Assembly: GCA_964629655.1 (NCBI GenBank)
Contig: CAZVQU010000001.1
Location: 420,056-484,055 of the forward strand
DNA from: an uncultured Planctomycetia bacterium
Lineage (GTDB): Bacteria; Omnitrophota; Gorgyraeia; Duberdicusellales; 4484-171
Reading direction: 5' to 3'
DNA: 64,000 nt
Below are positions 3,910-36,012 of this stretch, one piece after another. Both the position numbers and the translations under genes were made by a program. How positions within the stretch are numbered: position 1 is the first letter of the stretch; the number at the start of each line of letters is the position of its first letter. The notes below the pieces were generated by a model. The model made no database searches and had not been told where the DNA came from. It was given only the letters and a program-made list of their open reading frames with translations.

Positions 3910-3951
3910 CAGGAGTTAGAAATTATAGATTAAATGGCTGGTAAAAGTACC

Positions 3952-6970: not shown

Positions 6971-7729
6971 TTATCCTAAGGAATTTTTAACTATTTCTAC
7001 AAAAGAAGAACTATCTAAAGAAGCTCCTCCTACTAACGCTCCATCGATATCATCCTGCTGCATTAATTCTTTTATATTAGCCGGTTTAACGCTCCCCCCG
7101 TAGAGAATACGCAGATTATCGGCTACCTCTTCTGAGCAATTATCAACTAACCAACCTCGGATAAAACTATGAACTTCTTGAGCTTGCTGAGAGGTTGCAG
7201 TCTTTCCAGTGCCGATTGCCCATACTGGTTCATAAGCAATGATTAAATTTAAAAGCGCATCTTTTTCCAAACCTTCTAAGCCTCCAGCTAACTGGCTCTT
7301 TACAACATCAATAGTCTTGTCCGCTTCACGCTCTTCTAAGGTTTCACCTACGCAAAAAATAGAAATTAAATCTGTCCTTTGAGCTGCCTTTATTCTTTTA
7401 TTTACACTCTCATCACTCTCGTTAAAGTACTTTCTTCTCTCGGAGTGTCCGATAATTACATATTTACAACCGGCATCCTTTAGCATTTCCGGTGAGATTT
7501 CACCAGTAAAAGCACCTGAAGCTTCCCAGTAAACATTCTGAGCTCCTAGAAAGATATTAGAATCTATTAAAAGGTCTGAAACGTCAGAAAGTGCTGTATA
7601 TACCGGGCAAACGATAATCTCTGCCTCTTGAATATCAATAAGCTCTCTCTTTAAGCTATTAACTAGCTCGATTGCTTCCTTAATAGTCTTGTTCATCTTC
7701 CAATTACCAGCAATAACGGGTTTTCTCAT
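6971..7729 (-). CDS. tpiA: Triosephosphate isomerase
   Basis: Canonical N-terminus (VIAGNWKMN). Catalytic motifs IIGHSERR and AYEPVWAIGTG. Confidence 0.92.
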   Translation of the reverse strand: MRKPVIAGNWKMNKTIKEAIELVNSLKRELIDIQEAEIIVCPVYTALSDVSDLLIDSNIFLGAQNVYWEASGAFTGEISPEMLKDAGCKYVIIGHSERRKYFNESDESVNKRIKAAQRTDLISIFCVGETLEEREADKTIDVVKSQLAGGLEGLEKDALLNLIIAYEPVWAIGTGKTATSQQAQEVHSFIRGWLVDNCSEEVADNLRILYGGSVKPANIKELMQQDDIDGALVGGASLDSSSFVEIVKNSLG

Positions 7730-7777
7730 AATTTATTCCTTCCTCATCAATAAGGTTCCTAATAATAACTTATACTT

Positions 7778-8962: not shown

Positions 8963-8980
8963 CTTTTAACTCCGGGCTTC

Positions 8981-9982
8981 TTATTTAACCATATACTTAA
9001 TTAAATCTACGACTCGGCAAGAATAACCCCACTCGTTGTCATACCAAGATAAAATCTTAACCATATCGCCAAAACAAAATGTTTGTTTAGCATCTACTAT
9101 TGAAGATAGTGGATTCTTCTTAAAATCAATAGATACTAACGGCTCGTTGCTTACTCCCATTATTCCTTTCATCTTGCCATTAGCAGCCTCGGTTAAAACC
9201 TTATTTACCTCTTCAGTTGTAGTCTCTTTCCCTAGCTGGAATACAACGTCAACTATAGAAACAGTAGGGGTGGGGACTCTTATTGCTAAACCATCAAGTT
9301 TTCCTTTCAGCTCAGGGATAACTAATCCTACTGCCTTAGCTGCACCAGTTGTAGTTGGTATCATTGAAAGCGCAGCTGCTCTGGCTCTGCGTAAATCAGA
9401 ATGCGGATAATCTAACACCTTTTGGTCATTAGTGTAAGAATGAATCGTAGTCATAAGTCCTTTCTTAATATCAAAAGCATCTTTTAAAGCCTTTGCTACT
9501 GGTGCTATACAATTAGTAGTACACGAAGCGTTAGATACTATATTATCTTTGCCGGCATCGTACTTCTCTTCATTTACCCCTAAAACAAAGGTAGCAACAT
9601 CCCCTTTAGCTGGGGCTGATATTATAACTTTCTTTGCTCCAGCCTTGAGATGTAATCCGGCCTTCTGGGCATCACGGAAAAATCCGGTTGATTCTACTAC
9701 TACCTCTACTCCCAAATCTGCCCAGGGAAGATTAGCAGGATCTCTCTCTGATAAGACTTTAATCTTCTTTCCATCAATCACAAGAGAATCTCCCTCAGCT
9801 TTTACCTCATTGGAAAGAATACCAAAATTTGAGTCATATTTTAGAAGATAAGCTAAGGTAGCTGCATCAGTAAGGTCATTCACAGCTACAATATCAACAT
9901 TTGCTTCACCTCTTTCTAGCGCTGACCTCAACACTAATCTTCCAATTCTACCAAACCCATTAATACCTACTTTTATTCCCAT
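8981..9982 (-). CDS. gap: Glyceraldehyde-3-phosphate dehydrogenase
   Basis: NGFGRIGR Rossmann motif. Active-site ASCTTNC. Confidence 0.92.
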
Positions 9983-10009
9983 TTCTTCCTCCTTTTCTTG
10001 AAATAACCT

Positions 10010-11011
10010 CTAAATTTTTACCTCTCTTAAACATTCACTTGCTAATTCCGGCGGTGTAGAATTTATGTAAAATCCTGTTCCCCACTCAAACCCAGCAATT
10101 TTAGTTAACTTAGGCATAAGTTCAACATGCCAATGGCAAAGTTCATTAGTCTCACCGTTAAGTGGACTAGTGTGGATAATAAAATTGTAAGGCGGATTAT
10201 CTAGTAATACTTTCATCCGTAAAAGAATGTCTTTTAATATTCTTGCGAAGCTATTGATTTGGCCTTCACTGATATCGATAAATGAGTGCTGATGCTTCTT
10301 GGGAACTATGCACATCTCAAATGGTGAACGTGAAGCAAAAGGGCAAAAGGCATAAAAGTCATCATTCTCGCAAATCTGGCGTTTTTGCTCTTTCTTCTCC
10401 TGGTCTATCATGTCACAAAACACACAGCTTTTCTTATCCTCAAAATACCGCTGCATGCCTTCAAGTTCTCCACTAACCCGTCTAGGAACCACCGGTAAAG
10501 ATATAAGTTGAGTATGGCTATGTTCTAGGGAAGCTCCAGCAGCTAAACCGTAATTTTTAAATATCAATACATATTTGAAACGTTTATCTTCACCTAATAC
10601 AAGACTTCTTCTCTTGTAAGCAGTTATTACTCTTTTAATCTCATCAACACTTAAATCAGCCAGCTGCCTATCATGACTAGGGGTCTCTATAATGACCTCA
10701 TGCTGGCCTACCCCCCTCATAATATCAAAAATTCCTCTACTCTTCTTTCCTAAATCAGATACATTTTCTAAAGCTGGATACTTGTTAGGCACTGTTCTGA
10801 TTAACCATCCCGGAGTATCTCCGTCAGTAGCCGAAGGCCTATCAGCATCAACCTCAGGAGGCGTCAGCTTTTCATTACCTTCACAAAAAGGACAAGAGTC
10901 GTTTTCAGCAATAGCATCTTTCTCAGGCTTAAAATCACTGGGCCTTTTTCCCCGTTCAGTAGCAATAATAACCCAACGTCCGATTATAGGATCTTTTCTT
11001 AGTTCTGGCAT
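10010..11011 (-). CDS. galT: Galactose-1-phosphate uridylyltransferase family protein (HIT superfamily GalT-type)
   Basis: Zn-binding CxxC (SCPFCEGNE). His-x-His nucleotidyl-transfer motif (EHSHTQ). Length 333 aa. Confidence 0.65.
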   Translation of the reverse strand: MPELRKDPIIGRWVIIATERGKRPSDFKPEKDAIAENDSCPFCEGNEKLTPPEVDADRPSATDGDTPGWLIRTVPNKYPALENVSDLGKKSRGIFDIMRGVGQHEVIIETPSHDRQLADLSVDEIKRVITAYKRRSLVLGEDKRFKYVLIFKNYGLAAGASLEHSHTQLISLPVVPRRVSGELEGMQRYFEDKKSCVFCDMIDQEKKEQKRQICENDDFYAFCPFASRSPFEMCIVPKKHQHSFIDISEGQINSFARILKDILLRMKVLLDNPPYNFIIHTSPLNGETNELCHWHVELMPKLTKIAGFEWGTGFYINSTPPELASECLREVKI

Positions 11012-11088
11012 ATCTTCTAAATTGGCCTAGAATTCAGTGTTTTTCTGGGAAATTATTATAGCAATCGTAAGGCAAAATGCAAAGGATT

Positions 11089-12288
11089 TTATTGAAGGAT
11101 TAGTTTTAAAAATCTCTTCTTGCCAACCTTAAAAATTGCTCCTTGAGGAGAAATCTTTAAGCTCTGTTCTTTCAAAACAGTAATTACTTTAGCCTCTGAA
11201 TCTAGGAGAGAAATACCTCCTTGAGATAAGAGCCTGCGAGCTTCATTTTTAGAAGCCACCAGCTTCGCATTATGTAGAATCTCTATTATATCTACTGTAG
11301 ATTCTTCTACTTTCAATGTCGGTATCTCTTTAGGCAATTGGCCTTGAGAAAATACCTTTTCGAACTCTTTTCTTTCCTTTGCCCCTCTTCCTTTCGAATG
11401 GTAAAAAGAAACAATACTCTCAGCTAAATCTAGCTTAACCTCTTTAGGATGATTATTTTTTAACTCTTCGGGGTTAAAATCACTAAGAAGCCTGATGTAT
11501 TCCCACATAACCTCATCGGAAATACTCATTATTTTGCCAAACATAGATTTAGAACCCTCGGTTATGCCGATATAATTATTCAAAGACTTTGACATTTTAT
11601 TTTTCCCATCTAAACCTACTAAAATAGGCATAGTAACAATTGCCTGTGGAGATTGCCCGAGGATTTGCTGGAGATGCCGGCCAACAATTAAGTTAAACTT
11701 TTGGTCAGTTCCGCCAAACTCAATATCAGCTTCCATCTTATAAGAATCATACCCTTGTATTAAGGGGTAGATTATTTCTAAAACGGTAAGGGGTTTACCT
11801 TCTTTTATTCTCTTCGAGAAGTCGTCACGCTCTAGTATCCTGGCTATAGTATAAGAAGATAGTAGAGATAAAAACTTAGGCAGTCCTATTTTTTTATACC
11901 AAATGCTATTGTTGATTATCTTGGTCTTCTTTTTGTCTAAAATTTTAAATACTTGCTGGATATAGGTAGCGGCATTGGCTTTGATTTCTCTATCGGTTAA
12001 GACCGGGCGCAAGGTGCTTCTTTGAGAAGGATCCCCTATCTTAGCAGTAAAATCACCTATAATAAGGTAAACCTTATGGCCTAAATCCTGCAGTTTACGT
12101 AATTTTCTAAGAAGTACACTATGTCCTAGGTGGATATCTTTTGCGGTGGGATCAAAGCCAATCTTTAGCTTAAGAGGCTTATTCTTCTTAAAAGAGTTCT
12201 CTAGCTTAAGAGCTAACTCTTTCTCAACAATTAAGTCAACTGCATTCTCTTTTATGAGTTCAAGATGTTGGGATATCTTGCTCTTCAT
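11089..12288 (-). CDS. tyrS: Tyrosine--tRNA ligase
   Basis: Class I HIGH motif (DIHLGH) and KMSKS motif present. C-terminal S4-like domain. Confidence 0.9.
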   Translation of the reverse strand: MKSKISQHLELIKENAVDLIVEKELALKLENSFKKNKPLKLKIGFDPTAKDIHLGHSVLLRKLRKLQDLGHKVYLIIGDFTAKIGDPSQRSTLRPVLTDREIKANAATYIQQVFKILDKKKTKIINNSIWYKKIGLPKFLSLLSSYTIARILERDDFSKRIKEGKPLTVLEIIYPLIQGYDSYKMEADIEFGGTDQKFNLIVGRHLQQILGQSPQAIVTMPILVGLDGKNKMSKSLNNYIGITEGSKSMFGKIMSISDEVMWEYIRLLSDFNPEELKNNHPKEVKLDLAESIVSFYHSKGRGAKERKEFEKVFSQGQLPKEIPTLKVEESTVDIIEILHNAKLVASKNEARRLLSQGGISLLDSEAKVITVLKEQSLKISPQGAIFKVGKKRFLKLILQ

Positions 12289-20136: not shown

Positions 20137-23100
20137 TCACTCCTCGCTCGCGCAGCGCTCCAGGGAAATAATGTTAAACGTAAGACCGGCAGCATCTTTG
20201 AATTCCTGGACCATGCGCGCACCGAGGATCTGGGTTACGTTCCCAAAACCTCCTGAAATTTCTACGCTGGTCGTTAAATCAATTCCTCCTTTGGTGGCAC
20301 TCAGTGCTGACGATACAGACATCTGTTGATTACCCTCAACGTAATGATACACCGAATCATACTTCGGGGGTAAGTTAGAACGTGAAGGACGCTTTTGCGG
20401 TTCACGCGCAAACGCTAACTGAGGAAACTGAATATCCGGACGACGATTGACTATCTTTAACACTAGATCTGACCTGTCCGTCTGCTCGTCAAGGTATTTC
20501 ATGCGTCCGGGCACATAAAAATACTGCTTACCGGGGACGTTGAGCCGGTTAAAGAACTTTTCTTTACTCATACCTTCAATGGAAAAACCTTCAATCAGGC
20601 TAAAGAATGCGACACCATCTTTTTCCAGCACCCGCTTTACTTCACTAATTAAGACATGCTTATTCTTTAGATACACACCGACGGCGACCGGAACTAATAC
20701 TCCTAAGAATTCACCATCTTCGTAAGGCAGGCCGTTCTCAACATCCCAGAGCTTTAATCTACTGCGAAAATCATGCATAAACCGATCAAACAGCATTTCG
20801 CGGGCTTCAAAGCTTACCGCGTTGATTCTTTGCTTCATCAAGCCATAATTTGGTAAATACAACTCTTCTTTATTGATGAATTGTAATTCAATATTAGGAA
20901 AATTTTCCTGGATATCCTGAACAACAACCCCGGCGCCCACCCCGATAATCAGTAACTTCTTAGGACTTTCCTTTGTCGAGCGGCGATTAAGTTCATCAAG
21001 GAATTGTGAAACTTCCCCTTCAAAAATACGATCATCGACCCAAAGCCCGCGGGTAGTATTATTCATCCCGTAAGGATTCTTAATTGAAGATGAGGCTGCG
21101 CTACCGCCGGTGATACTCAAAGGTTGCTGGTAATCATCACTTTGCTTTATTTCTCCCCGCGGCCGCACATCCCGTAAAGAAATATTCTTAATGACCCTTA
21201 CATATTCCGGCCACCCTCCACCTTGCTCTGCATTCTCAGCGATGTATTTTATGGCTTTACTGTATACCGATGAAAATTGGCTCTGATCGATACTATATTT
21301 ACGCATTAGTAATGCTACCTGAAGGTTCACATCTGCGGAAACTCTGGCACCAATTTCATGATGTTCTGAGTAATGATCATAGGGCTCCAATATGTCATCG
21401 GTCAACCGAGCAGTGGGAACCAGCGACAAGGTACCGTATGTGCCCAACACCTGATTGCGGGCCGATTGAAACTCTTCACTGCTTGTATCCAGTTGCAATA
21501 GTTTCCTTTTGTGCACAGAGGTATCAAACGTTGCCTCCTGTTCGATAAATCCTCCCAGATAATAGAGTTCCGACGGCGTAAGAAAGGTAATAATCCCGGG
21601 AATACTTTCTCCGGAACTTGTTAATAATTGTCGCAGGCGCCGATAGCCAAGAACCCGCTCTAACCATGATAACGTTTGTTCAGTTGGAAAATTAGTATTT
21701 TTTAACACCTCCTTGGCAAGTTCTGTGCGATGATAGGCATAGGTAAGCACTTCCGAGAAATGATGAATAAAGCTAGCCCGGTTCGCCAGCGCAAAACCAA
21801 ATCGATCAGCAAATTCATGATTAACTTGTTTGTCTTTCTCATTGTCAATAACAAATCCTTTATATCCTTGACTATTCTCAAGGATAAGGAACTCATACAA
21901 ATGTGCGATCTCACTACTTAAACTGAATGCACCTCCCTGTATGCTCACTTCCGTAATCATCGCCAATGGTGATTGGAGGGAAATATTGTCACGGTTAAGC
22001 AAACCAGTAGAAAATGATCCACCACCCCAGGGATTACTCATATAAAAATACCATCGATGACGATGCATGAATCCCTTGGGCAATAACGCTAGCACCGAAT
22101 CATCCCATAACCGCAGATACTGCGCATAAGCCAAACCCCAGAGAAAATCTCCTAAATCATCTTGGTTTATTTCCTGCTGTCGTAATATGCCCTTGATTTT
22201 TTCTGCCTCCCGAACAGAACGTGCTCGATTTCCTCCAGGAACAAGCGATTCGTTTAATGCAAGCATTAAAAGATCCTGGACACCCATTGCCTGTATTTCT
22301 CGATCACTATAGTATCCATTCTGTCTTGCTTTGTGACGAATGATGGGAACTACAACTGTATCTATCCATGATTGATACCCGCCAACCATATCACCAGTTA
22401 CCAGACTGATTAAAGCATTTTCTGCCTCAACAGAGGATATTACTTCGTCTCTGGCCAGTCTTACCAGGAGAGAAAGACAACCATGAAAGAGCTTCGTCAT
22501 TTCGTCTTTTCGATCATAATCTTTCATAGTATTGATTTCTCTCATGCGATTAACGTAAGTCTCAACCGTTGCCACACTCGATACGGGCACAACTTCAAAC
22601 AGGACAAACATATTCCAATATTTTCTATACGTATCCACCTGCGCTGCCATCAGCCGCAATATGTCCTCTAAAACTTTAGCATCACCCCTCCACTTATGTG
22701 TCGTTCCCACAAACGCATAAAACAAGCGCTTCATCGAATCATCCTGGCAGGCGACAGGCAACGGAACCACTTTTAAAAGAATTGCTCTTCTTTGAGGAGA
22801 GAGGCGACTTAATTGATGAAAAACTTCGCTAACATAGTAATCAGATATGAGCTTTCTAAAAATAGTAGCAAGACTTACATCGCTTCCCAAAACAGTTTTC
22901 CATATATCAACTCCCCCCGGTACCGACGTTATTTTCCCTTGTGAGAATCCAATGTAATTTAAGGTGGGAATCAAATTGTAACTAATATTCGCTACATGCT
23001 TACTGTTCATCCAGGCATAGGCATCAATGTGATCGAGAACAAATAATTGTTTCTCTAGATTTATCTTGGACAGAGGGGTAATGATGTATTCTTTGAATTT

Positions 23101-25293
23101 CTTAAGTTCTTCTCGTGAATTTATCTCTCCTTCAATACTGATGGCAATCCTTTGCCGAACAACATCATCAAACTCACTAAGCAACGCTTCTTTTTCAACG
23201 GCAATGCGAGCCTGTTCATCCGGATAACGCACATAAATATCAACACCTGATAAATAATGTGACGGTTCGTTCGTTTCCCATGTCTTGTACAAAACATCCT
23301 GCGAGAAGGGAGCATCGGGCGTAACGTTAACTGCAAAAGGCTTGACCGCTAAAGATGTTTTCTCAGCATAGGCGTTAATTTTATCAAATACTGCAACCGG
23401 ATCGATCCCTACAAGATATTCGGTAGTATACGTTTCCTGAATGACCAATTTTACCTTATCGCCTAAGGCAGTTTTGAGCACTCTCCCTGCAGTATCAATA
23501 TTTGCCTTCTTATAATCGCTGAACCCTGCAGCGACGTGCCTACTACCGGCAAAGCCGATGATCTTTGCATGAGGATTCTTTTTTAATATTTCAAAGACAT
23601 GTAAGGCCATCCCTTCATCGACCGTCACTCGCTCTCCCTGAGCATTCGTTACATACCCATACTCATCTCCCATGCCAGGAACGGTTGTATGTGCGGTACG
23701 TGGATCAAAAGCAGTCACCTTGATACCGGCGCTGCGAGCAGCACTGAAAATATCTTCATAGGCCGCAAAAGCTGCTTCAGGAAATCCCACGGGTATGTCG
23801 GAATAAATAATTCCGTCAAGCATCCTTGGGTTACCGCTTTTCATGTAAAGATCGATGTACTCTTGATACTGCTCGTCTATCTCAAGAACGATATCGGTCA
23901 ATCCGCGGTCCCGCATGATACTCATTACATTAACCATGACATTCTTATGATCTACACTGGAATGTTCTTCACCAAGCATAACCACCTGCGCTCCTTGTTC
24001 AAAAAGATCAACGATAGTCTGGGTGATGTTTGTCCGGGCGTTTTGTTCAATGTACTGCATCACTGATGCTTCAGAGGCTAATATCGGCTCGGGCACTGTC
24101 AGCGTAAGTGTTTTAACCGGAGCGATGCTACATGCAGTAAGAAACATCGTTCCCAGTGTGAAGAATGTCCGACGCGTCATGCGTATTGGCGATGAACTCA
24201 CCGAGACATTGAGCCACTCTTCGGAATCAGAAAATCCCAGGCCACCGGAAAAGTACCTCCGTTTGATTTGCCTTCGTTCATAGGGATCGTAATCTTTTCG
24301 TATGTAATTATAAATGCCTTTCTTAAAGGACTCGACATACTGGTCATAAATCGTGTTCTTTATATCTTTGTCTTCTATGTCGATACCGGTTACCTTATTT
24401 TTATCGATGTAATATTGATAAATTGAATTTCTTAATTTCTGCTTAAACCAGGCCGCCAGAATGACCGAATGATATATCTGCCTGAGCCTGGCAAAATGTT
24501 GTTTATGGTTTACTTCCCCTGAGAGTTCGGGAAGGATAGTTTCTTTCATGATGCAGGAAGTCACTTTATTGATTTGCTCGGCCTGGGTAAGTGGCTTCTC
24601 TTGCTGTTCGCTGTGGCGGGAGAGTGCAAGATAATCTTCTTCGAGAAGAACTTTTAAACTGGCGTCGGTAATCATGGCTATGGTTCCGTCTTCGATAACC
24701 TTCGCCTGTCCGGGCACAATCCAGACCTTATTAAACGTATTGACTGGAACGTTTATAGTGGCAGCAAGCTTGTATATCTCTTTATAAGTCATCTCCCAAT
24801 AGTCCTTACCGGTAGCAGTATCCGGATGCATGAATGATGCGATGAGTTGCTTTAATAAGTAATCCTGAGCCAGCATGTCTTTCCCCAGATCAGTGACGCC
24901 TAAGCTATCAGGAATTATCCTGTCCTGTTCATAAGGAGAAAGATTCACCCATAAATCCTGTTCAGGGGTAGTAAGCGCTGCCAGGAAATATTTGATAAGA
25001 TCGGAGGCTTCTTCTTCACTTATTTCATCCTTATCCTGGGTATCAATAACGAACTGAAGTTTAAGTGGGTCCTTGGGATCAAGCTGTATGCCTTTGAGTA
25101 CAGGATAAGAATGGGTATATGAAGGAGCGAGCAACTGTTGAGCTGACGGTAGATCAAGTGCTACAGCATGGGCTTGTTCATCATTTACGCCTAATCGCTG
25201 GACATAGAAATACATGGAGCCTGCTGCAAGACAAACTGCAACATAGAGCCCTATTGCCCTAAAACCAATAGTACCTTTCTTATGGTGAGTCAT
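20137..25293 (-). CDS. Giant (1718 aa) multi-domain membrane/lipoprotein: N-terminal TM segment, internal Tat-type lipoprotein signal, ChaN/Tiki/TraB-like GxxH domain, long helical middle, C-terminal spermidine-synthase-like Rossmann methyltransferase fold
   Basis: Single uninterrupted ORF. TM helix at residues 14-31. TRRTFFTLGTMFLTAC at residue ~372 fits a Tat motif plus lipobox. Paired GxxH motifs (GEEH, GSRH) follow. C-terminal GxGxG (LLIIGVGAGVVVQD) precedes an acidic residue, as in PABS/class I methyltransferases. Confidence 0.6.
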   Translation of the reverse strand: MTHHKKGTIGFRAIGLYVAVCLAAGSMYFYVQRLGVNDEQAHAVALDLPSAQQLLAPSYTHSYPVLKGIQLDPKDPLKLQFVIDTQDKDEISEEEASDLIKYFLAALTTPEQDLWVNLSPYEQDRIIPDSLGVTDLGKDMLAQDYLLKQLIASFMHPDTATGKDYWEMTYKEIYKLAATINVPVNTFNKVWIVPGQAKVIEDGTIAMITDASLKVLLEEDYLALSRHSEQQEKPLTQAEQINKVTSCIMKETILPELSGEVNHKQHFARLRQIYHSVILAAWFKQKLRNSIYQYYIDKNKVTGIDIEDKDIKNTIYDQYVESFKKGIYNYIRKDYDPYERRQIKRRYFSGGLGFSDSEEWLNVSVSSSPIRMTRRTFFTLGTMFLTACSIAPVKTLTLTVPEPILASEASVMQYIEQNARTNITQTIVDLFEQGAQVVMLGEEHSSVDHKNVMVNVMSIMRDRGLTDIVLEIDEQYQEYIDLYMKSGNPRMLDGIIYSDIPVGFPEAAFAAYEDIFSAARSAGIKVTAFDPRTAHTTVPGMGDEYGYVTNAQGERVTVDEGMALHVFEILKKNPHAKIIGFAGSRHVAAGFSDYKKANIDTAGRVLKTALGDKVKLVIQETYTTEYLVGIDPVAVFDKINAYAEKTSLAVKPFAVNVTPDAPFSQDVLYKTWETNEPSHYLSGVDIYVRYPDEQARIAVEKEALLSEFDDVVRQRIAISIEGEINSREELKKFKEYIITPLSKINLEKQLFVLDHIDAYAWMNSKHVANISYNLIPTLNYIGFSQGKITSVPGGVDIWKTVLGSDVSLATIFRKLISDYYVSEVFHQLSRLSPQRRAILLKVVPLPVACQDDSMKRLFYAFVGTTHKWRGDAKVLEDILRLMAAQVDTYRKYWNMFVLFEVVPVSSVATVETYVNRMREINTMKDYDRKDEMTKLFHGCLSLLVRLARDEVISSVEAENALISLVTGDMVGGYQSWIDTVVVPIIRHKARQNGYYSDREIQAMGVQDLLMLALNESLVPGGNRARSVREAEKIKGILRQQEINQDDLGDFLWGLAYAQYLRLWDDSVLALLPKGFMHRHRWYFYMSNPWGGGSFSTGLLNRDNISLQSPLAMITEVSIQGGAFSLSSEIAHLYEFLILENSQGYKGFVIDNEKDKQVNHEFADRFGFALANRASFIHHFSEVLTYAYHRTELAKEVLKNTNFPTEQTLSWLERVLGYRRLRQLLTSSGESIPGIITFLTPSELYYLGGFIEQEATFDTSVHKRKLLQLDTSSEEFQSARNQVLGTYGTLSLVPTARLTDDILEPYDHYSEHHEIGARVSADVNLQVALLMRKYSIDQSQFSSVYSKAIKYIAENAEQGGGWPEYVRVIKNISLRDVRPRGEIKQSDDYQQPLSITGGSAASSSIKNPYGMNNTTRGLWVDDRIFEGEVSQFLDELNRRSTKESPKKLLIIGVGAGVVVQDIQENFPNIELQFINKEELYLPNYGLMKQRINAVSFEAREMLFDRFMHDFRSRLKLWDVENGLPYEDGEFLGVLVPVAVGVYLKNKHVLISEVKRVLEKDGVAFFSLIEGFSIEGMSKEKFFNRLNVPGKQYFYVPGRMKYLDEQTDRSDLVLKIVNRRPDIQFPQLAFAREPQKRPSRSNLPPKYDSVYHYVEGNQQMSVSSALSATKGGIDLTTSVEISGGFGNVTQILGARMVQEFKDAAGLTFNIISLERCASEE

Positions 25294-29267: not shown

Positions 29268-29342
29268 TTGGTTGCCCCGTCTGGACTCGAACCAGAAATA
29301 GCTGATCCAGAATCAGCCGTGCTACCGATTACACCACGGGGC
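29268..29342 (-). tRNA. tRNA-Gln (anticodon CUG)
   Basis: Minus-strand sequence TGCCCCGTGGTGTAATCGGTAGCACGGCTGATTCTGGATCAGCTATTTCTGGTTCGAGTCCAGACGGGGCAACCA. 7-bp acceptor stem UGCCCCG/CGGGGCA. Anticodon loop UUCUGGA. T-arm GGTTCGAGTCC. CCA is encoded. Confidence 0.85.
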
Positions 29343-29431
29343 AAGTTCCTATTATTGTAGTATTTCCAACGGGTTCTGGCAAGCATAATATAGTAATTTC
29401 CATTTGGAGACTGACAAGGCACAAACAGCCA

Positions 29432-29494: not shown

Positions 29495-29645
29495 AATAAG
29501 GGATAAATGCAATATTGACCTGTAAACATTTTCAAAATATCTTTATTATTACCTTGAAAAAATATAGAAAATATGTTACATTTTAAAGGATACTTGTGTT
29601 TGATGTTGGGAGGCGTCAAAGGCAGATTTTTGATTGGATTTTGGA

Positions 29646-31025
29646 ATGGAAAAAAAGGCACGTTTAGTAACACTTTTATTAATCTGCTTTCTGCTTCCCT
29701 TAAACATTTGGGCTGCAGCAAGCCTCTCAGTGGTTCCTCTCGAAGGAGGCAATAGCCTTCGCTTTGGAAGAATAACCTCCGACAGTACAATAAGCAAACA
29801 AGTCAGGATAAGAATTACTTCTGATTTAGGAGTAAAATACCAGGTCGAACAAAGACTGCTCGAGCCTTTGCGAAATGCTAGAGGCGAATCACTAAATGCT
29901 GATGTCTTTAATTTCTACACCTTAAGGGGCTCAAACCTAACTGGTAGCCTTTACCAAGACACACCTTACAGAGTAGATACTTTCAAAAGAATTCTTTATG
30001 TTTCAGCTGCTGCCGGTACCGGCGATTCTTTTTCAGTTATTTATTCAATTGACCCAAGTAAAATAAACATCTCGGGAAATTTCTTTGGTAGAATTTTATT
30101 TACTTTTACTCCTCTAGGCGCCGGTGGCACCCAAAGAGAAGTTATCCTTAATGTTTACTTTGAAACTGAGAAGAACTTTCAGGTAAGTCTAAGAACATCT
30201 TCTCAAAGCTCCCGAACCTTAAGACTTTCGTCAAGTAAGGATCAATTAGAGGGTTACTTACAAATTAGTGCCGAAGGTTCTTTAGGGCAAAAATACGAAG
30301 TAAAGCAAGTAGTCCAGGAGCCATTTAAAAATGAGAAGGGCGAAGTTATTCCCTTAGAGCTAGTTAAAGTATTCGCATCAAGCAGTAAAGGTCAAACCTA
30401 TGCCTCCTCTCCCACTCCTCTGGCTAGAAAGACTCTCCTGATATACGGTTCCGAGGCCCGAGGAGAAGGCGATGAAATCGTAGTTAACTTTTCTGTCAAC
30501 ACTGAAGACTTTGAAGAATTGCCGAGCGGTCATTTTAAAGCCCTAGTATTATATAATATCGAATCTCTGGGCTCTTTGATAAAAAGACTACCAGTAGATA
30601 TATCTTTAGAGATAAAGCCGATATTTGATATCGAAGTCGTCTCTGAATCTGTGGGGGGCTTATATTTTCGAAACTTAAAGCCCGACTCAGGATTAATAGA
30701 AAAAGAAATAATCATTAAAGTCCAAACTAATCTCAATCGGCCTTACAACGTTGTCCAAAATCTAAACACTCCGCTTGCTAATCAAAGCGGAAATACTATT
30801 CCTTTGCAATCCTTCCGCTTAAGAGAAGAAGAAAGTAAAGATAATCCAGGAAATATAATTTTTTCTCAATATACTCCTTTAAATTTAGGAGATACTAGAG
30901 TTTTTGCTTCTAATTCAACCGGTGATTCTTCAGAATTCAAAATCATTTATTCTTTGGAGGTTCCAAGGGACATGGTTGGCGGGGACTACTTTACAGGATT
31001 AAACTACTCTCTAGTAGAGAAATAA
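29646..31025 (+). CDS. Secreted protein with three tandem pilin-like (spore-coat-U/Csu-like) domains; candidate tip adhesin or fibre subunit
   Basis: Start set at the ATG at 29646 (MEKKARLVTLLLICFLLPLNIWAAAS signal peptide). The ORF-track start at 29634 is a TTG. Three ~140-aa repeats each carry a conserved core: LGVKYQVEQRLLEPLRNARGESL, LGQKYEVKQVVQEPFKNEKGEVIPL and LNRPYNVVQNLNTPLANQSGNTIPL. Confidence 0.6.
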   Translation: MEKKARLVTLLLICFLLPLNIWAAASLSVVPLEGGNSLRFGRITSDSTISKQVRIRITSDLGVKYQVEQRLLEPLRNARGESLNADVFNFYTLRGSNLTGSLYQDTPYRVDTFKRILYVSAAAGTGDSFSVIYSIDPSKINISGNFFGRILFTFTPLGAGGTQREVILNVYFETEKNFQVSLRTSSQSSRTLRLSSSKDQLEGYLQISAEGSLGQKYEVKQVVQEPFKNEKGEVIPLELVKVFASSSKGQTYASSPTPLARKTLLIYGSEARGEGDEIVVNFSVNTEDFEELPSGHFKALVLYNIESLGSLIKRLPVDISLEIKPIFDIEVVSESVGGLYFRNLKPDSGLIEKEIIIKVQTNLNRPYNVVQNLNTPLANQSGNTIPLQSFRLREEESKDNPGNIIFSQYTPLNLGDTRVFASNSTGDSSEFKIIYSLEVPRDMVGGDYFTGLNYSLVEK

Positions 31026-31058
31026 ATTATAAAACCAAAAAAAAGGAGGTGAATTGGT

Positions 31059-31685
31059 GTGAAAAAATTGATTGCAGCCTTAATGTTAATCTCACTTGTA
31101 AGTTCAGCGAGTATTTGTTCAGCAGGAACTACTGCTAGTGTAGGTGTTCAGGCTACTGTTCCACAACAGTTGGAGCTAAGTAGCTGGATTCGCTATGCTC
31201 CTCCGGGAGTTGATCCTTACGGAACAGGCTCAGGGGATGCCGCAAGCTTAGACTTTGGTACTCTTGCCTTTGATGATACCTATCATACATGGACAGCCTC
31301 GAAATACTTTACTGTATTTCTTCTGGCTAGCTCATCAGGAAGGCCCTATAGGATTGAACAGACAAATACAGGTTTTGTTCTTGGCAGCACTACTCTTGAT
31401 AACAACTTGATTTTGACTCCTGACTATCAGTCAGGTGACGAGATAGTATCAGGAACTGCTCAAGGAAGCATACCTTCAGGAGACAGTTTCGGTGCTAAGA
31501 CATTAGCTTTGGGAACCAACAAGATAATCTACAATGGCACCTCAGGGCTATCAAGAATAGCAAGAGCATACTATGGTCTAGCTACAGGGGATGCTGGTGA
31601 GCCCTCGGGGGCAGAACCAATCACTGGAGACCAAATCTCAGGAACATATGCGGGAACAATAACTTTTTCTGTTGTTCTCCAATAA
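31059..31685 (+). CDS. Secreted single-domain pilin-like subunit (spore coat protein U / CsuA/B-like)
   Basis: GTG start at 31059, preceded by an AAGGAGGTG RBS. Signal peptide. The RPYRIEQ core is shared with the repeats of the upstream protein. Gly/Ser/Thr-rich. The C-terminal alternating strand GTYAGTITFSVVLQ is characteristic of SCPU-domain donor-strand pilins. Confidence 0.55.
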   Translation: MKKLIAALMLISLVSSASICSAGTTASVGVQATVPQQLELSSWIRYAPPGVDPYGTGSGDAASLDFGTLAFDDTYHTWTASKYFTVFLLASSSGRPYRIEQTNTGFVLGSTTLDNNLILTPDYQSGDEIVSGTAQGSIPSGDSFGAKTLALGTNKIIYNGTSGLSRIARAYYGLATGDAGEPSGAEPITGDQISGTYAGTITFSVVLQ

Positions 31686-31842: not shown

Positions 31843-32640
31843 GTGCTTAAGAAAACTATTTTCCTATTTTTACTGTTTTTGTTGCCTTTCTCATCGTTTG
31901 CCTTAAGGATTGATAACCCTAAGATCAAACTCCAACTTTCTCCAAGCGACAATTACAGTGGAACTATTATTGTAGACAACCCCTCTAGTGATGAAGTCTC
32001 GGTAAAGACATACTTAGAAGACTTTACCTATGTCACTCCTTTTGATGGCGCTAAAGAGTTTTATGCTCAGGGCACAACAAAAGCATCCCTTTCGAAATGG
32101 ATAACCTTTTCTCCTCGAGAGTTCACATTGCAACCTTTTTCACGCCGAAGAGTTAATTTTTCAATAAGTCCTAAGTCTTCTTTCAATTCTGTTCGTTGTG
32201 GAGTTCTATTCTTTGAGACATCTATCGGAACTACCTATGAGAATGGCAAGGCGATAAATGTTGTGGGCAGAATCGGTTCTTTATTCTTTGTTGAACCAAA
32301 AAATAAGAGCAAGCGAGCAACTTTCACTAGTATTAAAGGCCTCTCTCATTCTTTAACCGGTGATTTTACTAACTCCGGTAATTCATTTATCCATGCTCAA
32401 GGCACATCCTATACCATAGATAACGAAGGCATGGTTAAAGATAGAAGTGTTTTAGAAGAAAGTTACCTTTTACCTAATGATAGTACCAAATTGCAAATGG
32501 CTTTATCTAGCGATTTAGCACCTGGCACTTACACGATGGTAATTACTTTTGATTTAGAGGAGGATGATTCTTTGGTTAAAGAAATTGATTTCTCTCTCTC
32601 AGGTTCAGGAAAAGTTACCGTCTTAGATGAGAGAAATTAA
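31843..32640 (+). CDS. Putative periplasmic PapD-like fibre chaperone
   Basis: Signal peptide (MLKKTIFLFLLFLLPFSSFA). N-terminal LRIDNPKIKL...GTIIVDNPSSDEVSV resembles the first β-strands and conserved Arg of Ig-fold pilus chaperones. The ~240-aa mature length fits two Ig-like lobes. Its stop overlaps the downstream start (TAATG). Confidence 0.45.
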   Translation: MLKKTIFLFLLFLLPFSSFALRIDNPKIKLQLSPSDNYSGTIIVDNPSSDEVSVKTYLEDFTYVTPFDGAKEFYAQGTTKASLSKWITFSPREFTLQPFSRRRVNFSISPKSSFNSVRCGVLFFETSIGTTYENGKAINVVGRIGSLFFVEPKNKSKRATFTSIKGLSHSLTGDFTNSGNSFIHAQGTSYTIDNEGMVKDRSVLEESYLLPNDSTKLQMALSSDLAPGTYTMVITFDLEEDDSLVKEIDFSLSGSGKVTVLDERN

Positions 32641-35516
32641 TGCCGAAAAAAATCAAAATTCTTTTATTGTTTGTAGTTTTTTTATTTTGCTTCTCCTCTA
32701 TTCTCTATCCCCAATCTCGCTCTTGTAGGTATTTATTAGAGCTGGGTAAGTGGGAATTAAGAGACGACAACTACGAAAAAGCCCTCCATTACTTTCAAAT
32801 TGCTCAATTAATAGATCCCGAATCAAAGGAAGCCCTGTCTTATATTAACTTAATAAAACGGGCGCTTGAAGGCAGAATTATCCGTGATGAGATCTATGAC
32901 GAAGAAGAGATTGCCAGCTCAACAGAATCTATTCTGGAAGGAAAAAGCAAAGATAAAGAAAAGCAACGAGAAGTAATAAGTGATACTCTGACTTCTTGGG
33001 AGAAAAAAATAGCTGGAGGGAAAAAAGATCAGGAAAAAATTACTGTCTTCCCCCCTCTATACCTTAAAACTATCCAAGAGATCGAGGAAGAAAAAGGAAT
33101 CAAAGAAATAAAAGATACGGAAAAAGTAAAAAGAAAAGTAGCTCCTCATAAGAAAAAAACAGCTAAAAAAGAAGAAATAATCTACCTTACCTCTGAAACT
33201 AGGGATGAATTCCCTCTAACCATAAAAATCGCCCCCGGTGAATCATTCAAAATTGACTCTGAAACCTTAAAAAGATTTCTGATAGTCTCTCCGGGAGTAA
33301 TTAAAGTAGATAAGCTTGCCATTAATGCCTTGGGCGTCACTGCTGCCAGCCTCGGCTCTTCATTCTTACATGTTTGGGATGACGTCGGCAGGTGGACCTT
33401 TAATATAAAAATTATCCCTCCACGAGTAGTAGTGAAAACCGAACAACTTTGGGAAAAGCCTGATGGCTTTAAATTCATGTATAGTGCTGACTACAGCCAA
33501 TATTACAGAGGTGATAAGTTTGCTGACATGGAAAGGCAAACACTCACCTATGATGAAGGAGCAGCTATCGTCGGACCAACCCCCTATGGGGAGTTAGATG
33601 CTTCTGTAAATTGGTCACGGCTTAATAAGCAAAAGGAAGTAACCGGCTATACTGTAGGCTTAAGCGAAGGGCGTTTCTTGAATTTTAAAGATTTTTATAT
33701 CCGTGGTTTTGATTTTAGAGAAACTTTCTCGTCTTTATCATTCCCAGGAGAAACCTTAAAGGGTGTAGTCTTTAGATCACCGGCTTTTCATGAAAAAATC
33801 GAATATACTCTGCTTTACGGGCGACAAAAGCAATACTCATCAGGAATCATCTCTCCAGGGGTTATCGAAGAAGAAGACTCTTATATTGAAGGCTTACGGC
33901 TGAGCTTGTTCCCGCATAATAAACATAAGTTTTTCTTTAACTATGCTCACGGATTTGGCGAAGACAGAGAAGATTATCTTAAAGACGAGGTTTTCTCTTT
34001 CCAAAGTGAGCACAATTTCGGAAATCTTGATATCATAACTGAAGTAGCTTCAGATAAAGACTCTATAGGAGCCAACTTCTCTTCAAAAATCCAGATGCCC
34101 AAACTTAACTTAAATCTTTCTTTTCGCGATATCGAGAAGGATTTTGTTACTATCTCAGGTAGACCGCCTAACACCGGAGAAATTGGAGCTATCGCTGGTC
34201 TCGATTGGAATCCAAACGATAAGGTCTCCCTAAACTCAAGCCTAGATGTCTATAGAGATAGAGAGTTTTTTAATCCTGAAAACGAAAATGACCCTAATTT
34301 TAATTGGAATAATTATTTGAATATACGCTTATCACCCACTTCGAACTTAGCTACAAGTCTGTATTATATTAATTCTCCAGGCCTTCTCTCACCCCAAAGA
34401 AGTTTAAATGCCACTACTACCTATAGCAAAAGGTTTAACTGTAACCTCTTTGGTGATAGATCAATTAATACATTCCTTGGCTACAATTACCAGAGGAGCA
34501 TTAATCCCCTTTCACCGACCTCTGACTACAGACGTGACGGCATACTTAGCGGCTTACGCCTTCAATTAGCCGGAGACCTATATTATTACCTTAACTATAA
34601 CTTCTCCTGGGTAGATGAACTCTATACTGGTGAGGAATCAAAACCTTCGGTTACTGAGACCGGATTAGACTTCTACCACACCTTTAATCCTAATTTATCT
34701 TCTAACTTACGCTTAAGTTACCGTGATGAAGAGAATGCATCTGCTCTACACTCCTTCCTCTCTGGAGAAGATAGCCTCGAAGGAAGCCTAAACCTTACTT
34801 ACAGCCCTAAAAAAGGTGCTGAATTCTTCCTTGATGGAAGAGTAAGAAATGTCTGGGCCGAGAATGCTGGCACAGAAGAGTTTATCGAAGCTGACATACG
34901 ACTAGGAGCACGCTTATCCTGGGACAACTTCTTCAGCTGGTCACCGGAGACAACAATACAAGGTTTTGTATTCAAAGACTCTAATGGTAACGGGGAAAAA
35001 GATGATGATGAAATTGGAATACCTGGAGTAGAAATAATTGCCGGCCCTAAAAAAGTTACCAGCACCAAAAGTGGAAAATTTACTACTACAGTAAAGGCAA
35101 AAAGGATAATTGCTAATATCAACTTTAATAGTGCACCTAAAGGCTATATTTTAACTACTCCGGCATCTTTTAATTTAGATACCTCTACTGGCGAAAAACA
35201 TAACATAAATTTTGGCATATCTCCTCAATCAGGAATATACGGAGTTGTTTTTTACGACTCTAACGGAAATAATAAGCTGGATAAAAAAGATACTACTATT
35301 TCGGGAGTAAAGATAATCCTCAATCAGAAGAAAAAAACAGTTACCAATAGCGAAGGTGTTTATTTCTTCGGTGGTATTCCTACCGGAACCCATAGCTTAA
35401 CCTTTGATGTTAATTCTATACCTTTAGAATATTTGCCTAAGGTCTCGATAAAAAAAGAGGTAGATGTTTCTGAAGGACTTACCTACACCTACCATATCCC
35501 CTTGCAAAAGAAATAA
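32640..35516 (+). CDS. Large outer-membrane assembly-platform-like protein: TPR + CpaC/secretin-type N-terminal domain + Tyr/Asn/Ser-rich β-barrel-like region + two C-terminal CnaB/SdrD-B-like β-sandwich domains (usher analogue?)
   Basis: Signal peptide. TPR helix pair. A K/E-rich linker. GESFKIDSETLKRFLIVSPGVIKVD...LGSSFLHVWDDVGRWTFNIKI matches the pilus-formation N-domain found at the N-terminus of CpaC-type secretins. About 450 aa of alternating-polarity β-strands end in Y/F/W-rich strands. Two C-terminal repeats (GFVFKDSNGNGEKDDDEIGIPGVEI, GVVFYDSNGNNKLDKKDTTISGVKI) follow. Confidence 0.55.
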   Translation: MPKKIKILLLFVVFLFCFSSILYPQSRSCRYLLELGKWELRDDNYEKALHYFQIAQLIDPESKEALSYINLIKRALEGRIIRDEIYDEEEIASSTESILEGKSKDKEKQREVISDTLTSWEKKIAGGKKDQEKITVFPPLYLKTIQEIEEEKGIKEIKDTEKVKRKVAPHKKKTAKKEEIIYLTSETRDEFPLTIKIAPGESFKIDSETLKRFLIVSPGVIKVDKLAINALGVTAASLGSSFLHVWDDVGRWTFNIKIIPPRVVVKTEQLWEKPDGFKFMYSADYSQYYRGDKFADMERQTLTYDEGAAIVGPTPYGELDASVNWSRLNKQKEVTGYTVGLSEGRFLNFKDFYIRGFDFRETFSSLSFPGETLKGVVFRSPAFHEKIEYTLLYGRQKQYSSGIISPGVIEEEDSYIEGLRLSLFPHNKHKFFFNYAHGFGEDREDYLKDEVFSFQSEHNFGNLDIITEVASDKDSIGANFSSKIQMPKLNLNLSFRDIEKDFVTISGRPPNTGEIGAIAGLDWNPNDKVSLNSSLDVYRDREFFNPENENDPNFNWNNYLNIRLSPTSNLATSLYYINSPGLLSPQRSLNATTTYSKRFNCNLFGDRSINTFLGYNYQRSINPLSPTSDYRRDGILSGLRLQLAGDLYYYLNYNFSWVDELYTGEESKPSVTETGLDFYHTFNPNLSSNLRLSYRDEENASALHSFLSGEDSLEGSLNLTYSPKKGAEFFLDGRVRNVWAENAGTEEFIEADIRLGARLSWDNFFSWSPETTIQGFVFKDSNGNGEKDDDEIGIPGVEIIAGPKKVTSTKSGKFTTTVKAKRIIANINFNSAPKGYILTTPASFNLDTSTGEKHNINFGISPQSGIYGVVFYDSNGNNKLDKKDTTISGVKIILNQKKKTVTNSEGVYFFGGIPTGTHSLTFDVNSIPLEYLPKVSIKKEVDVSEGLTYTYHIPLQKK

Positions 35517-35780
35517 TTACTTTATTAACGCAGTCTTTAAAAGGACTCTCTGGCCCTCTCGGGTTACCTCCTCTATAGCTATTACTCTTTCCTCTTCGAC
35601 TATGACCCCATACTCAACCTCTTCGCTGGCCTCATCAACCTCTGTCGGTATAACAAATTCTTCATTAATCTCAACCCTTTGAGGAATAGTAAAAGAAGCT
35701 CTAACGACGGTAGTATTGCCAGCTAACACAGAAATAGGGATAATGACTAACAGCACAGAGATTAAAACATACTTACTCAT
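35517..35780 (-). CDS. Small secreted acidic protein
   Basis: 87 aa with signal peptide (MSKYVLISVLLVIIPISVLA) and a Glu/Val-rich C-terminus. Convergent with and abutting the plus-strand operon. Confidence 0.4.
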   Translation of the reverse strand: MSKYVLISVLLVIIPISVLAGNTTVVRASFTIPQRVEINEEFVIPTEVDEASEEVEYGVIVEEERVIAIEEVTREGQRVLLKTALIK

Positions 35781-36012
35781 CTTGGCCTCCTTTCTTATCC
35801 TTCATCTCTAACTTCAAATCCTGGATTATTTGTTTTTTCAGCCAAAGATCCTTAGACACATGGACTATCTCTTTAATTACATGAGAACGGGCAACTTTCT
35901 TTCCGATTGCAAAATAGAGATCTTTTACTATCTTATCGAGAAAATCCAGCTCCTCCCTATTTATGAAGGAAACTACTTTGAAAAGGATTTGTTTTTTGCT
36001 ATGTTCTTTCAT
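35773..36012 (-). CDS. Small putative DNA-binding protein (ribbon-helix-helix-like)
   Basis: 79 aa. An N-terminal alternating hydrophobic strand (KQILFKVVSF) is followed by two predicted helices. Its stop overlaps the start of the downstream small secreted protein by 8 nt. Confidence 0.3.
   Translation of the reverse strand: MKEHSKKQILFKVVSFINREELDFLDKIVKDLYFAIGKKVARSHVIKEIVHVSKDLWLKKQIIQDLKLEMKDKKGGQDE

Follow-up and report, generated by a model that had tools for sequence, protein, structure and literature searches.

A gene cluster of Omnitrophota that may encode a chaperone-assisted, donor-strand-type surface fiber

The described systems that come closest to the gene cluster analyzed in this report include chaperone-usher pili, in particular the class 5 (alternative) pilus CFA/I, which comprises the chaperone CfaA, the major pilin CfaB, the usher CfaC and the two-domain tip CfaE, together with the engineered subunit fusions in PDB entries 3f85, 3f84 and 3f83. 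FimH, PapG and CfaE are all two-domain tip subunits, and multidomain tips are normal in these pili. The cluster considered here consists of five genes, termed A to E, in a 64-kb stretch of contig CAZVQU010000001.1 (the window; ~38% GC). Genes A, B, C and D form the sole block of plus-strand genes in the window, and E follows D on the opposite strand.

Two other types of system are relevant to the comparison. WxL clusters of Firmicutes encode a small WxL protein, a large protein with a C-terminal WxL domain, and WxLIP, which is composed of DUF916 and DUF3324 domains and a transmembrane helix (PMC9772566, PMC10599100). AlphaFold-multimer predicts that a strand of a WxLIP hairpin completes the WxL beta-sandwich in parallel (PMC10599100). 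Also, in the fibers formed by Bacillus TasA (with TapA) and in archaeal bundling pili and threads, beta-sandwich subunits are joined by a donated N-terminal strand.

We propose that genes A to E encode a chaperone-assisted, donor-strand-type surface fiber of a diderm Omnitrophota bacterium, which would work in a manner like that of chaperone-usher pili but with different protein families. In our estimate, this proposal has an even chance of being correct. Strand exchange, polymerization, protein locations, and the functions assigned to D and E are what we infer from the findings presented below.

The A family was collected by an exhaustive hidden Markov model search, which yielded at least 473 clusters at 50% identity (E ≤ 1e-3), and the statements on domain architecture below refer to the best 150 of these 473. 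One word-indexed search for the B family gave 35 clusters at 90% identity. Narrow profiles contained 20 sequences, and broad profiles contained 158 A-family and about 40 B-family sequences, with divergent copies from related loci included. The nearest relatives of the cluster are found in metagenome-assembled genomes of Candidatus Omnitrophota. The gene order A-B-C-D and then E is kept in all seven loci that are long enough (the window, L001 to L005, and L010), down to identities of 31-34%. The genomes with loci L003 and L004 encode A proteins that are 83-84% identical to that of the window and are labeled "uncultured Planctomycetia bacterium", whereas all other relatives carry the label Omnitrophota; the label of these two bins is probably a taxonomic mislabel. 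The cluster is not described in the searchable literature on Omnitrophota pili and ushers, TTHA1873, or donor-strand systems in Omnitrophica or Deinococcus.

Proteins A and B

Gene A corresponds to an open reading frame on the plus strand at 29634-31025, which gives 463 amino acids (aa) from a TTG codon. However, all homologues begin at MEKK and have about 459 aa, which supports the ATG at 29646 as the start and a protein of 459 aa; the gene coordinates and this start had been given correctly in an earlier note on this DNA. Protein A is secreted, with a signal peptide (aa 1-24) and an A-x-A type cleavage site.

Three tandem repeats in A had been noticed in the sequence, and they are borne out by Smith-Waterman scores of 89-117 between thirds of the protein, compared with 29-30 ± 5 for 300 shuffles (z 12-18). 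Comparisons of family profiles by hhalign give E values of 1.3e-21 (repeats 1 and 2), 3.7e-19 (repeats 1 and 3) and 2.2e-17 (repeats 2 and 3). The repeats are 150, 149 and 136 aa long, and, as the same observation held, all of them carry the core motif, in the forms KYQVEQ...PLRNARGE (repeat 1), KYEVKQ...PFKNEKGEVIPL (repeat 2) and PYNVVQ...PLANQSGNTIPL (repeat 3). The AlphaFold model of A has a mean predicted local distance difference test (pLDDT) value of 88.9 and shows three all-beta domains. When this model was compared with the PDB by using Foldseek, the top match was 3f85 (E 2.3e-14), an engineered trimer of CfaB in which three pilins are fused so that the donor strand of one completes the pilin before it in cis. 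Next come 3f83 and 3f84, which are CfaE-CfaB and CfaB-CfaB fusions. By sequence, A matches no Pfam or NCBIfam family at E ≤ 1-10, and PDB sequence searches gave no match.

The three domains differ in how they end. Repeat 1 (29718-30167, plus strand; aa 25-174) is a complete Ig-like domain, whose strands run from E25-31 to E144-156 and E164-174, according to DSSP. It begins directly at its A strand, and mature A has no N-terminal extension. A linker, EKN, connects the last, G-like strand of repeat 1, REVILNVYFET (30135-30167; aa 164-174 by DSSP), to the strand with which repeat 2 begins. The terminal strand of repeat 1 aligns with its equivalent in repeat 2 and, in the extended and global modes of hhalign, with the N-terminal extension of B described below. 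Repeat 2 (30168-30614, plus strand; aa 175-323) is likewise a complete Ig-like domain. Its last, G-like strand, LIKRLPVDISLEIK (30573-30614; aa 310-323), is followed by a proline and the first strand of repeat 3. Because this strand (E310-323) forms a two-residue hairpin with the preceding strand (E295-307), it belongs to its own domain.

Repeat 3 (30615-31022, plus strand; aa 324-459) is also Ig-like, but it is 13-14 aa shorter than the other two repeats and lacks the last strand. It ends right after the strand GDYFTGLNYSLVEK, with the final DSSP strands, E446-450 and E452-458, at the C-terminus of the protein, and this C-terminus is conserved in all homologues. We propose, on the basis of the alignments and the model, that repeat 3 presents an acceptor groove.

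Conservation is also unequal among the repeats. The mean frequency of the most common residue is 0.50 in repeat 1, with 11 columns at 90% or more, and is lowest in repeat 2 (0.37); repeats 1 and 3 both exceed repeat 2. Given this lowest conservation, repeat 2 is probably a spacer. A loop of the form RGSN..GSLYQD (RGSNLTGSLYQD; aa 94-105, window positions 29925-29960) is highly conserved across the A family in repeat 1 only and may be the site at which the distal domain binds a ligand. This loop and the conservation of the repeats together suggest that A might combine a head for binding, a spacer and a domain for assembly.

All full-length proteins among the best 150 of the 473 A clusters match the entire three-domain profile in one stretch, and the shorter proteins among them resemble fragments. 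Because full-length relatives in this set all have three domains, we conclude that the triplication is ancient and fixed. One homologue, at 10001-10891 of L007 (a complete Omnitrophota chromosome), enters a masked stretch, seen as X in the translation, after repeat 2.

Gene B (31059-31685, plus strand) encodes a secreted single-domain protein of 208 aa. Its signal peptide is cleaved after a nearly invariant alanine (A22), as is typical of signal peptidase I, and Cys 20 is not conserved in the family. The AlphaFold model (pLDDT 89.4) is all-beta, and the protein ends with the strand GTYAGTITFSVVLQ, with no last strand after it. Matches of this model in the PDB include donor-strand fiber subunits of four systems, namely CfaB, the Pyrobaculum bundling pilin, CS20, the pilin domain of PapG, PapA and TasA, with FimI ranking lower. 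TasA (8aur) and the Pyrobaculum pilin (7ueg) are among the best of these fold matches, although weak (E 5e-3 to 5e-2) and without sequence similarity. Neither B nor its divergent homologues match a Pfam or NCBIfam family at E ≤ 1-10, and PDB sequence searches with B gave no match.

Between the signal-peptide site and the first modeled strand, B has an N-terminal extension of 15 residues, TTASVGVQATVPQQL (31128-31172, plus strand; aa 24-38), with near-invariant columns. In B, columns of this kind are V30, A32, V34, P35, L38 and L40, and V30, A32 and V34 alternate within the extension. The extension is as conserved as the core, yet no DSSP strand precedes E39-47 in the model of the monomer. We propose that the extension is a donor strand.

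Some loci carry two B paralogues, as at 8605-9228 and 9296-9922 of L010 (plus strand); further B-type genes are at L009 5880-6455 and L002 5525-6121. In a divergent subgroup of B proteins (P0061, L009 and L010a), a literal W-T-[LI] stands in place of the PY-x-I motif and the C-terminus is TLTLTP, but the likeness of this subgroup to the two WxL motifs is without statistical support. Locus L009 also encodes, directly upstream of its A homologue, a 521-aa protein (2861-4426, plus strand) in which a glycoside hydrolase family 26 (GH26) domain (Pfam E 1.4e-7) is joined to a C-terminal B-type domain (E 7e-28 with the B profile). Judged by its sequence, this protein would be an enzyme-carrying subunit.

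The earlier note had further held that the core motif recurs in B and had suggested that A arose by triplication of the subunit gene. The first half of the core, P/K-Y-x-[VI]-x-Q, is indeed present in B (as RPYRIEQT), but the second half is confined to the repeats of A. Pairwise comparisons of the repeats with B are not significant (z ≤ 1), and the narrow profiles give marginal values (E 1.3e-3 to 0.05). With the broad profiles, hhalign yields E values of 3e-6 for repeat 1 (117 columns), 2.9e-6 for repeat 2 (44 columns) and 9.3e-6 for repeat 3 (117 columns), and the register is constant. The scores of these real comparisons are 38-42, whereas column-shuffled B profiles score 8.6-18.0 (40 comparisons) and reversed B profiles 10-13; the unrelated Ig-like family C of the same operon, used as a control, scores 18-30 over short stretches only. 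Because the strands of the two AlphaFold models coincide one for one in the alignment, we regard the similarity as homology, not composition; the outcome that the earlier note had named as refuting, a purely compositional motif with no secondary-structure register, is not what is seen, and the profile alignment stands above its controls. The common ancestry of the A domains and B is therefore upheld. However, the repeats resemble one another far more than they resemble B, which indicates that an A-type domain, as opposed to the subunit gene itself, was triplicated after divergence from B.

A structure prediction had been suggested as a way to see whether each repeat is a complete fold or needs a donor strand. 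According to DSSP and the alignments, repeats 1 and 2 are complete, and the penultimate strand is the final one in both repeat 3 and B, so that the last strand is absent from them. When the unit is redefined as the terminal strand of repeat 2 plus repeat 3 and compared with mature B, the local alignment extends over 140 columns (E 7.5e-6), and the global alignment has an E value of 1.2e-7. In the local alignment, the terminal strand of repeat 2, LIKRLPVDISLEIK, aligns with the mature N-terminus of B, TASVGVQATVPQQLELSSW, and the alignment reaches the third mature residue of B. In these 140 columns, RLPVDISLEIKPIFDIEV pairs with TASVGVQATVPQQLELSS, and the extension of B aligns with the terminal strand of repeat 2, the proline linker and the A strand. 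Because the extension of B aligns with the terminal strand of repeat 2, the evolutionary unit is a strand followed by a domain. As far as alignments and models indicate, the strand of this unit completes the preceding domain in cis in A, and in B no preceding domain exists. The suggestion of a pre-assembled array or tip subunit fits these results, in that A has two complete repeats and an incomplete third one, and B has an extension homologous to the completing strand.

Proteins C, D and E

Gene C (31843-32640, plus strand) encodes a secreted protein of 265 aa with two Ig-like domains. It ends in ...SGSGKVTVLDERN, without a hydrophobic segment or transmembrane helix. For comparison, WxL clusters were taken from plasmids of five genera, and an hhalign comparison of the C family with seven plasmid-borne WxLIP proteins gave a probability of 95.7% and an E value of 9.1e-9 over 210 columns, which cover both domains. 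Members of the C family have 250-290 aa, as opposed to 337-365 aa for WxLIP (PMC10599100). Their Pfam matches are all below threshold: fn3_5 in 22 of 35 members and WxLIP_PGBD/DUF916 in 17 of 35 (best E 1.5e-5). PapD_N and PapD_C were not matched by any of the 35 members at E ≤ 0.1, and a few members match the ASH, HYDIN or Cep192 Ig-like families. The C profile matched a single protein in the PDB, the fimbrial chaperone EcpB (E 0.0037, profile positions 93-167). Names given to C-family proteins in their sources include DUF916 and "P pilus assembly chaperone PapD", each in one source.

A hairpin at aa 121-152 of C (VLFFE...GRIGSLFFVEP) is the segment equivalent to the WxLIP hairpin, and it lies inside the stretch matched by EcpB. 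We propose from these sequence relationships that C is a periplasmic chaperone and that this hairpin is a candidate donor strand.

Genes similar to C are also present on Deinococcus plasmids (hhalign E 7.3e-27), directly upstream of a CarboxypepD_reg protein of 839-1090 aa and adjoining genes for small secreted beta-rich proteins. Examples of these clusters are at 88-92 kb of NC_012529.1 and 12-18 kb of NZ_CP140100.1, and the loci denoted L011 (plasmid of Deinococcus sp. AB2017081, 6863-12548) and L012 (plasmid 2 of Deinococcus deserti, 7357-11744) are of this type. The pair formed by a C-like gene and a large protein is therefore not confined to one phylum. In these plasmid clusters, as in that of the window, a C-like gene precedes a large CarboxypepD_reg protein and small secreted proteins are nearby. 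They differ in that only the C-terminal Ig domains of D align with the large protein (E 4.4e-6), with no similarity detected for the central region of D, and in that no three-domain protein is present. The small Deinococcus proteins show no similarity to B or to the A repeats. The Deinococcus clusters are possibly a sister system in Deinococcota.

For one Deinococcus homologue of C, the annotation reads "FimB/Mfa2 family fimbrial subunit", apparently a misnomer. Because of this annotation, the type V pili of Bacteroidota (FimA/Mfa) were considered as a counterpart. Subunits of these pili arise from lipoprotein precursors with a conserved lipobox cysteine and mature through proteolysis. Type V pili were rejected on the grounds that the lipobox cysteine is not conserved in B (Cys 20), where cleavage is of the signal peptidase I type, and that A has an A-x-A site.

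Gene D (32640-35516, plus strand), whose start overlaps the stop codon of C by one base, encodes a secreted protein of 958 aa. It consists of a signal peptide, a TPR region (aa ~26-75), a charged linker, a "pilus formation protein N-terminal" domain (aa 194-256), a central region (aa ~260-790), and two SdrD_B/CarboxypepD_reg Ig-like domains (aa ~790-958). In Pfam searches with D and its homologues, T2SS-T3SS_pil_N was matched in six of six proteins (best E 5.3e-8), SdrD_B also in all six (best E 1.6e-15), and TPR_2 in five. The pilus formation domain is of the type found at the start of Tad-type secretins. The central region, about 530 aa, is beta-rich and belongs to no known family.

Usher (PF00577) is not matched by D or its five homologues at E ≤ 1. 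When the D-family profile was compared with 177,635 PDB sequences (E ≤ 10), PapC and FimD were not found, and the only match was of the central part to OmpG, with an E value of 0.5. The identification of D as an usher is thus ruled out at the sequence level by the Pfam and PDB profile searches. D is a probable outer-membrane barrel of another kind, and we infer by analogy that its layout, with a periplasmic N-terminal domain, a large barrel-like core and two C-terminal beta-sandwiches, parallels that of an usher.

Gene E (35517-35780, minus strand; 87 aa) is convergent with D and adjoins its stop codon. Secreted mini-proteins of 85-89 aa occupy this convergent position behind D in all seven loci that reach past D; apart from the window, the copies, all on the minus strand, are at 14544-14813 of L001, 9769-10032 of L002, 14146-14412 of L003, 7816-8079 of L004, 15757-16014 of L005 and 13944-14165 of L010. 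The E protein of the window consists of a signal peptide, the segment NTTVVRASFTIPQRVEIN, an acidic linker and a conserved C-terminal strand, RVLLKTALIK, and has no Ig domain. Mature residues 2-20 of E align residue for residue with mature residues 2-20 of B, with an hhalign score of 21.8 (E 0.0033) compared with at most 12.7 for 30 shuffles, so that the register of the two proteins is identical when counted from the signal-peptide cleavage site. The B profile itself matches the E copy of L005 (E 6e-6). We propose that E is a donor-only subunit that may serve as a terminator, anchor or primer. The cluster would then encode three types of protein: acceptor-only (A), donor-plus-acceptor (B) and donor-only (E).

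An open reading frame for 79 aa lies upstream of E on the same strand (35773-36012), with an overlap of eight bases. It is kept beside E in the window and at 14806-15045 of L001, 14405-14644 of L003 and 8072-8311 of L004 (minus strand). Its product has no signal peptide and matches no Pfam family above noise. A small cytoplasmic regulator is possible, and whether it belongs to the system is uncertain.

The proposed fiber and competing explanations

In the proposed fiber, B would be the repeating subunit, an Ig-like fold minus its last strand, and its free N-terminal extension would supply that strand to a neighbor. A would be the first, distal subunit, made of three head-to-tail copies of the B-type fold. 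Copies 1 and 2 would be completed in cis by a strand homologous to the extension of B, copy 1 would have no extension of its own, and copy 3 would remain open, so that the extension of the first B could enter it. Binding would be the task of copy 1, which is conserved, with the poorly conserved copy 2 serving as a spacer. Until assembly, C, as a soluble periplasmic relative of the Gram-positive WxLIP, would cap the open grooves of A and B with the strand of its hairpin (aa 121-152). D would serve as an outer-membrane platform or pore, and E, which would have a donor extension and no acceptor domain, would end or anchor the chain.

Such a system would share several features with CFA/I pili. These are Ig-like subunits that lack the last strand and have an N-terminal extension (B; repeat 3 of A also lacks this strand, as judged from secondary structure and alignments), a tip that is free of an extension and has an acceptor domain (A), a periplasmic partner with two Ig domains (C), a large outer-membrane protein with extra beta-sandwich domains (D, as predicted), the organization of the operon, and the best structural matches of A (E 2.3e-14) and B (E 1.2e-3). 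Unlike in chaperone-usher pili, however, the components match none of the respective sequence families: D matches no usher, A and B match neither Fimbrial (PF00419) nor the CblD/CFA-I type or SCPU families, and C matches no PapD family at E ≤ 0.1, although its profile resembles EcpB. C instead groups with WxLIP, D carries TPR and the secretin-type "pil_N" domain in place of the usher N-terminal domain, and a donor-only mini-protein would stand in for a PapH- or FimI-type terminator. The extra domains of A appear as copies of the pilin fold with a completing strand in cis, an arrangement known only from engineered constructs. A three-domain tip had been called unusual for chaperone-usher pili; with two-domain tips being common there, the number of domains is not what sets A apart, but extra domains that copy the pilin fold with a built-in donor strand are unusual.

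The proposal also has resemblances to fibers of the TasA and archaeal type, although these have neither a dedicated periplasmic chaperone nor an outer-membrane component. TapA is read as a short accessory protein that supplies only a strand, and it would be analogous to E.

Several observations weigh against the proposed fiber. The open groove and the docking of the extension were judged from secondary structure (DSSP) and alignments only, and the PDB matches of the B model are weak, with a best E value of 1.2e-3 and template-modeling scores of 0.33-0.43. Generic tandem Ig arrays, among them integrin legs and AgI/II, are further matches of the A model, with E values of 1e-10 to 1e-8. The similarity between E and B (E 0.0033) covers only 19 residues, and D has no detectable similarity to ushers, its barrel being read from the character of its sequence alone. 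In the GH26-B fusion of L009, an extension-like NIKVNVHIP is internal, after a Pro/Gly linker, which shows that the extension can occur elsewhere than at a free N-terminus. Finally, no polymer has been reported for the homologous WxL clusters, whose proteins are considered to make up a complex at the surface (PMC9772566, PMC10599100).

The last two of these points favor the explanation that the cluster specifies a WxL-type surface complex and no fiber, in which A and B would each be stabilized 1:1 by a strand of C and displayed through D, and the N-terminal strand of B would rearrange within its own domain. Polymerization is indeed not described for WxL proteins, which are regarded as peptidoglycan-bound and not as fibers. 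C is a full-length homologue of WxLIP (E 9.1e-9, across both Ig domains), and the cluster follows the logic of a minimal WxL cluster, with a small single-domain protein, a large one with a homologous C-terminal domain, and a two-Ig partner (PMC9772566); here, the comparison of repeat 3 of A with B gives an E value of 9.3e-6 (117 columns). In both cases, a strand of the two-Ig partner is predicted to complete the beta-sandwich of another protein, and an N-terminal strand is joined through an unstructured stretch. However, A and B are not detectably WxL domains. The WxL domain of Pfam (PF13731, with two W-x-L motifs) is not matched by A, B or eight divergent B homologues. Comparisons of B and the A repeats by hhalign with nine small WxL proteins (encoded on plasmids of Enterococcus, Bacillus, Lactiplantibacillus and Lactococcus), some of them made with the W-T-[LI] subgroup of B, gave E values of 0.03-0.12, which is the noise level of shuffled controls. 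The collinear features that can be seen are by eye only, namely an N-terminal strand, an FG motif, an aromatic-x-aliphatic motif and a C-terminal Y...L.[WFY].[LV], and kinship with WxL domains is a lead at most. Moreover, C lacks the transmembrane helix that tethers WxLIP, no LPXTG partner is present, the diderm host adds the outer-membrane protein D, and the upstream domains of the large protein A copy the same fold. The homology of the B extension to strands that complete the preceding domain in A is a signature of complementation between subunits, and a donor-only E would have no obvious role in a 1:1 complex. We consider a WxL-type complex the main competing explanation, although rather unlikely.

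The matches of the A model to many unrelated tandem Ig arrays, and the fact that A and B match no known family, could also be explained if A were an ordinary multi-Ig adhesin without strand complementation. A would then be a tandem-Ig protein of the surface or periplasm with B, C and D as mere neighbors, and the shared core would reflect a common fold and an old duplication. This is improbable in our judgment, given that the five genes are strictly syntenic across distant relatives, that the last strand is missing in exactly repeat 3 and B, both with conserved C-termini, that the unstructured extension of B is near-invariant, and that C is related to strand-donating partners. The earlier note had assumed that the locus belongs to chaperone-usher pili, and a divergent true member of the classical, alternative or archaic type might be argued for from the resemblance of the C profile to EcpB (E 0.0037), the CfaB-type best structural matches of A and B, and the C-family protein named as a PapD chaperone in a source. 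This assignment is not supported: Usher (PF00577), PapD_N, PapD_C and the fimbrial pilin families of Pfam are not matched, even at E ≤ 1, the D profile matches no PapC or FimD among PDB sequences, and C is demonstrably closer to WxLIP, of which it is a homologue. The sequence evidence speaks against an usher and against fimbrial pilins, and for a PapD-like chaperone it is mixed. Membership in the chaperone-usher class is highly improbable.

The proposed donor-strand fiber can also be taken a step further, in a form that we put forward as tentative and doubtful. The cluster may represent a diderm founder of a new class of donor-strand machinery that bridges the WxL/WxLIP clusters of Gram-positive and the chaperone-usher pili of Gram-negative bacteria. 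This class would be defined by a WxLIP-type periplasmic chaperone, an outer-membrane assembly pore that is not an usher, a natural three-pilin tip that complements itself in cis, and a donor-only terminator of peptide size.

Neighboring genes and biologic implications

The window also contains a gene for tRNA-Gln (CTG) at 29269-29343 on the minus strand, where it separates the minus-strand genes farther upstream from the cluster's promoter region. Farther upstream, a minus-strand gene (20137-25293) encodes a protein of 1718 aa. The N-terminus of this protein has a membrane or signal segment, and aa 434-532 match a ChaN/Tiki-type haem-binding-uptake domain (Pfam E 2e-9). Its C-terminal region is methyltransferase-like by eye only, and the remainder of the protein beyond the ChaN/Tiki-type domain is without annotation.

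Whichever model applies, a fold, a domain structure and a role open to testing can now be assigned to two sizeable families, A and B, that had lacked any annotation. If the proposed fiber is real, the three-domain protein A would correspond, in nature, to the cis-complemented pilin fusions that serve structural studies and vaccine design, and the donor-only mini-protein E would offer a novel, very simple means of ending or anchoring a fiber. The machinery would share no family with ushers, and WxLIP-type proteins outside Firmicutes would have a first functional hypothesis, that of a periplasmic chaperone. The poorly understood WxL clusters would also be tied to a pilus-like assembly logic. Should the cluster in fact represent a bridging class, WxL clusters would themselves be strand-complementation systems, and the principle would have arisen or spread independently of the usher family. 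Omnitrophota is a phylum of mostly host-dependent nanobacteria. Donor-strand assembly, if confirmed for this cluster, would extend to these organisms, where attachment structures are likely to be central to the lifestyle.

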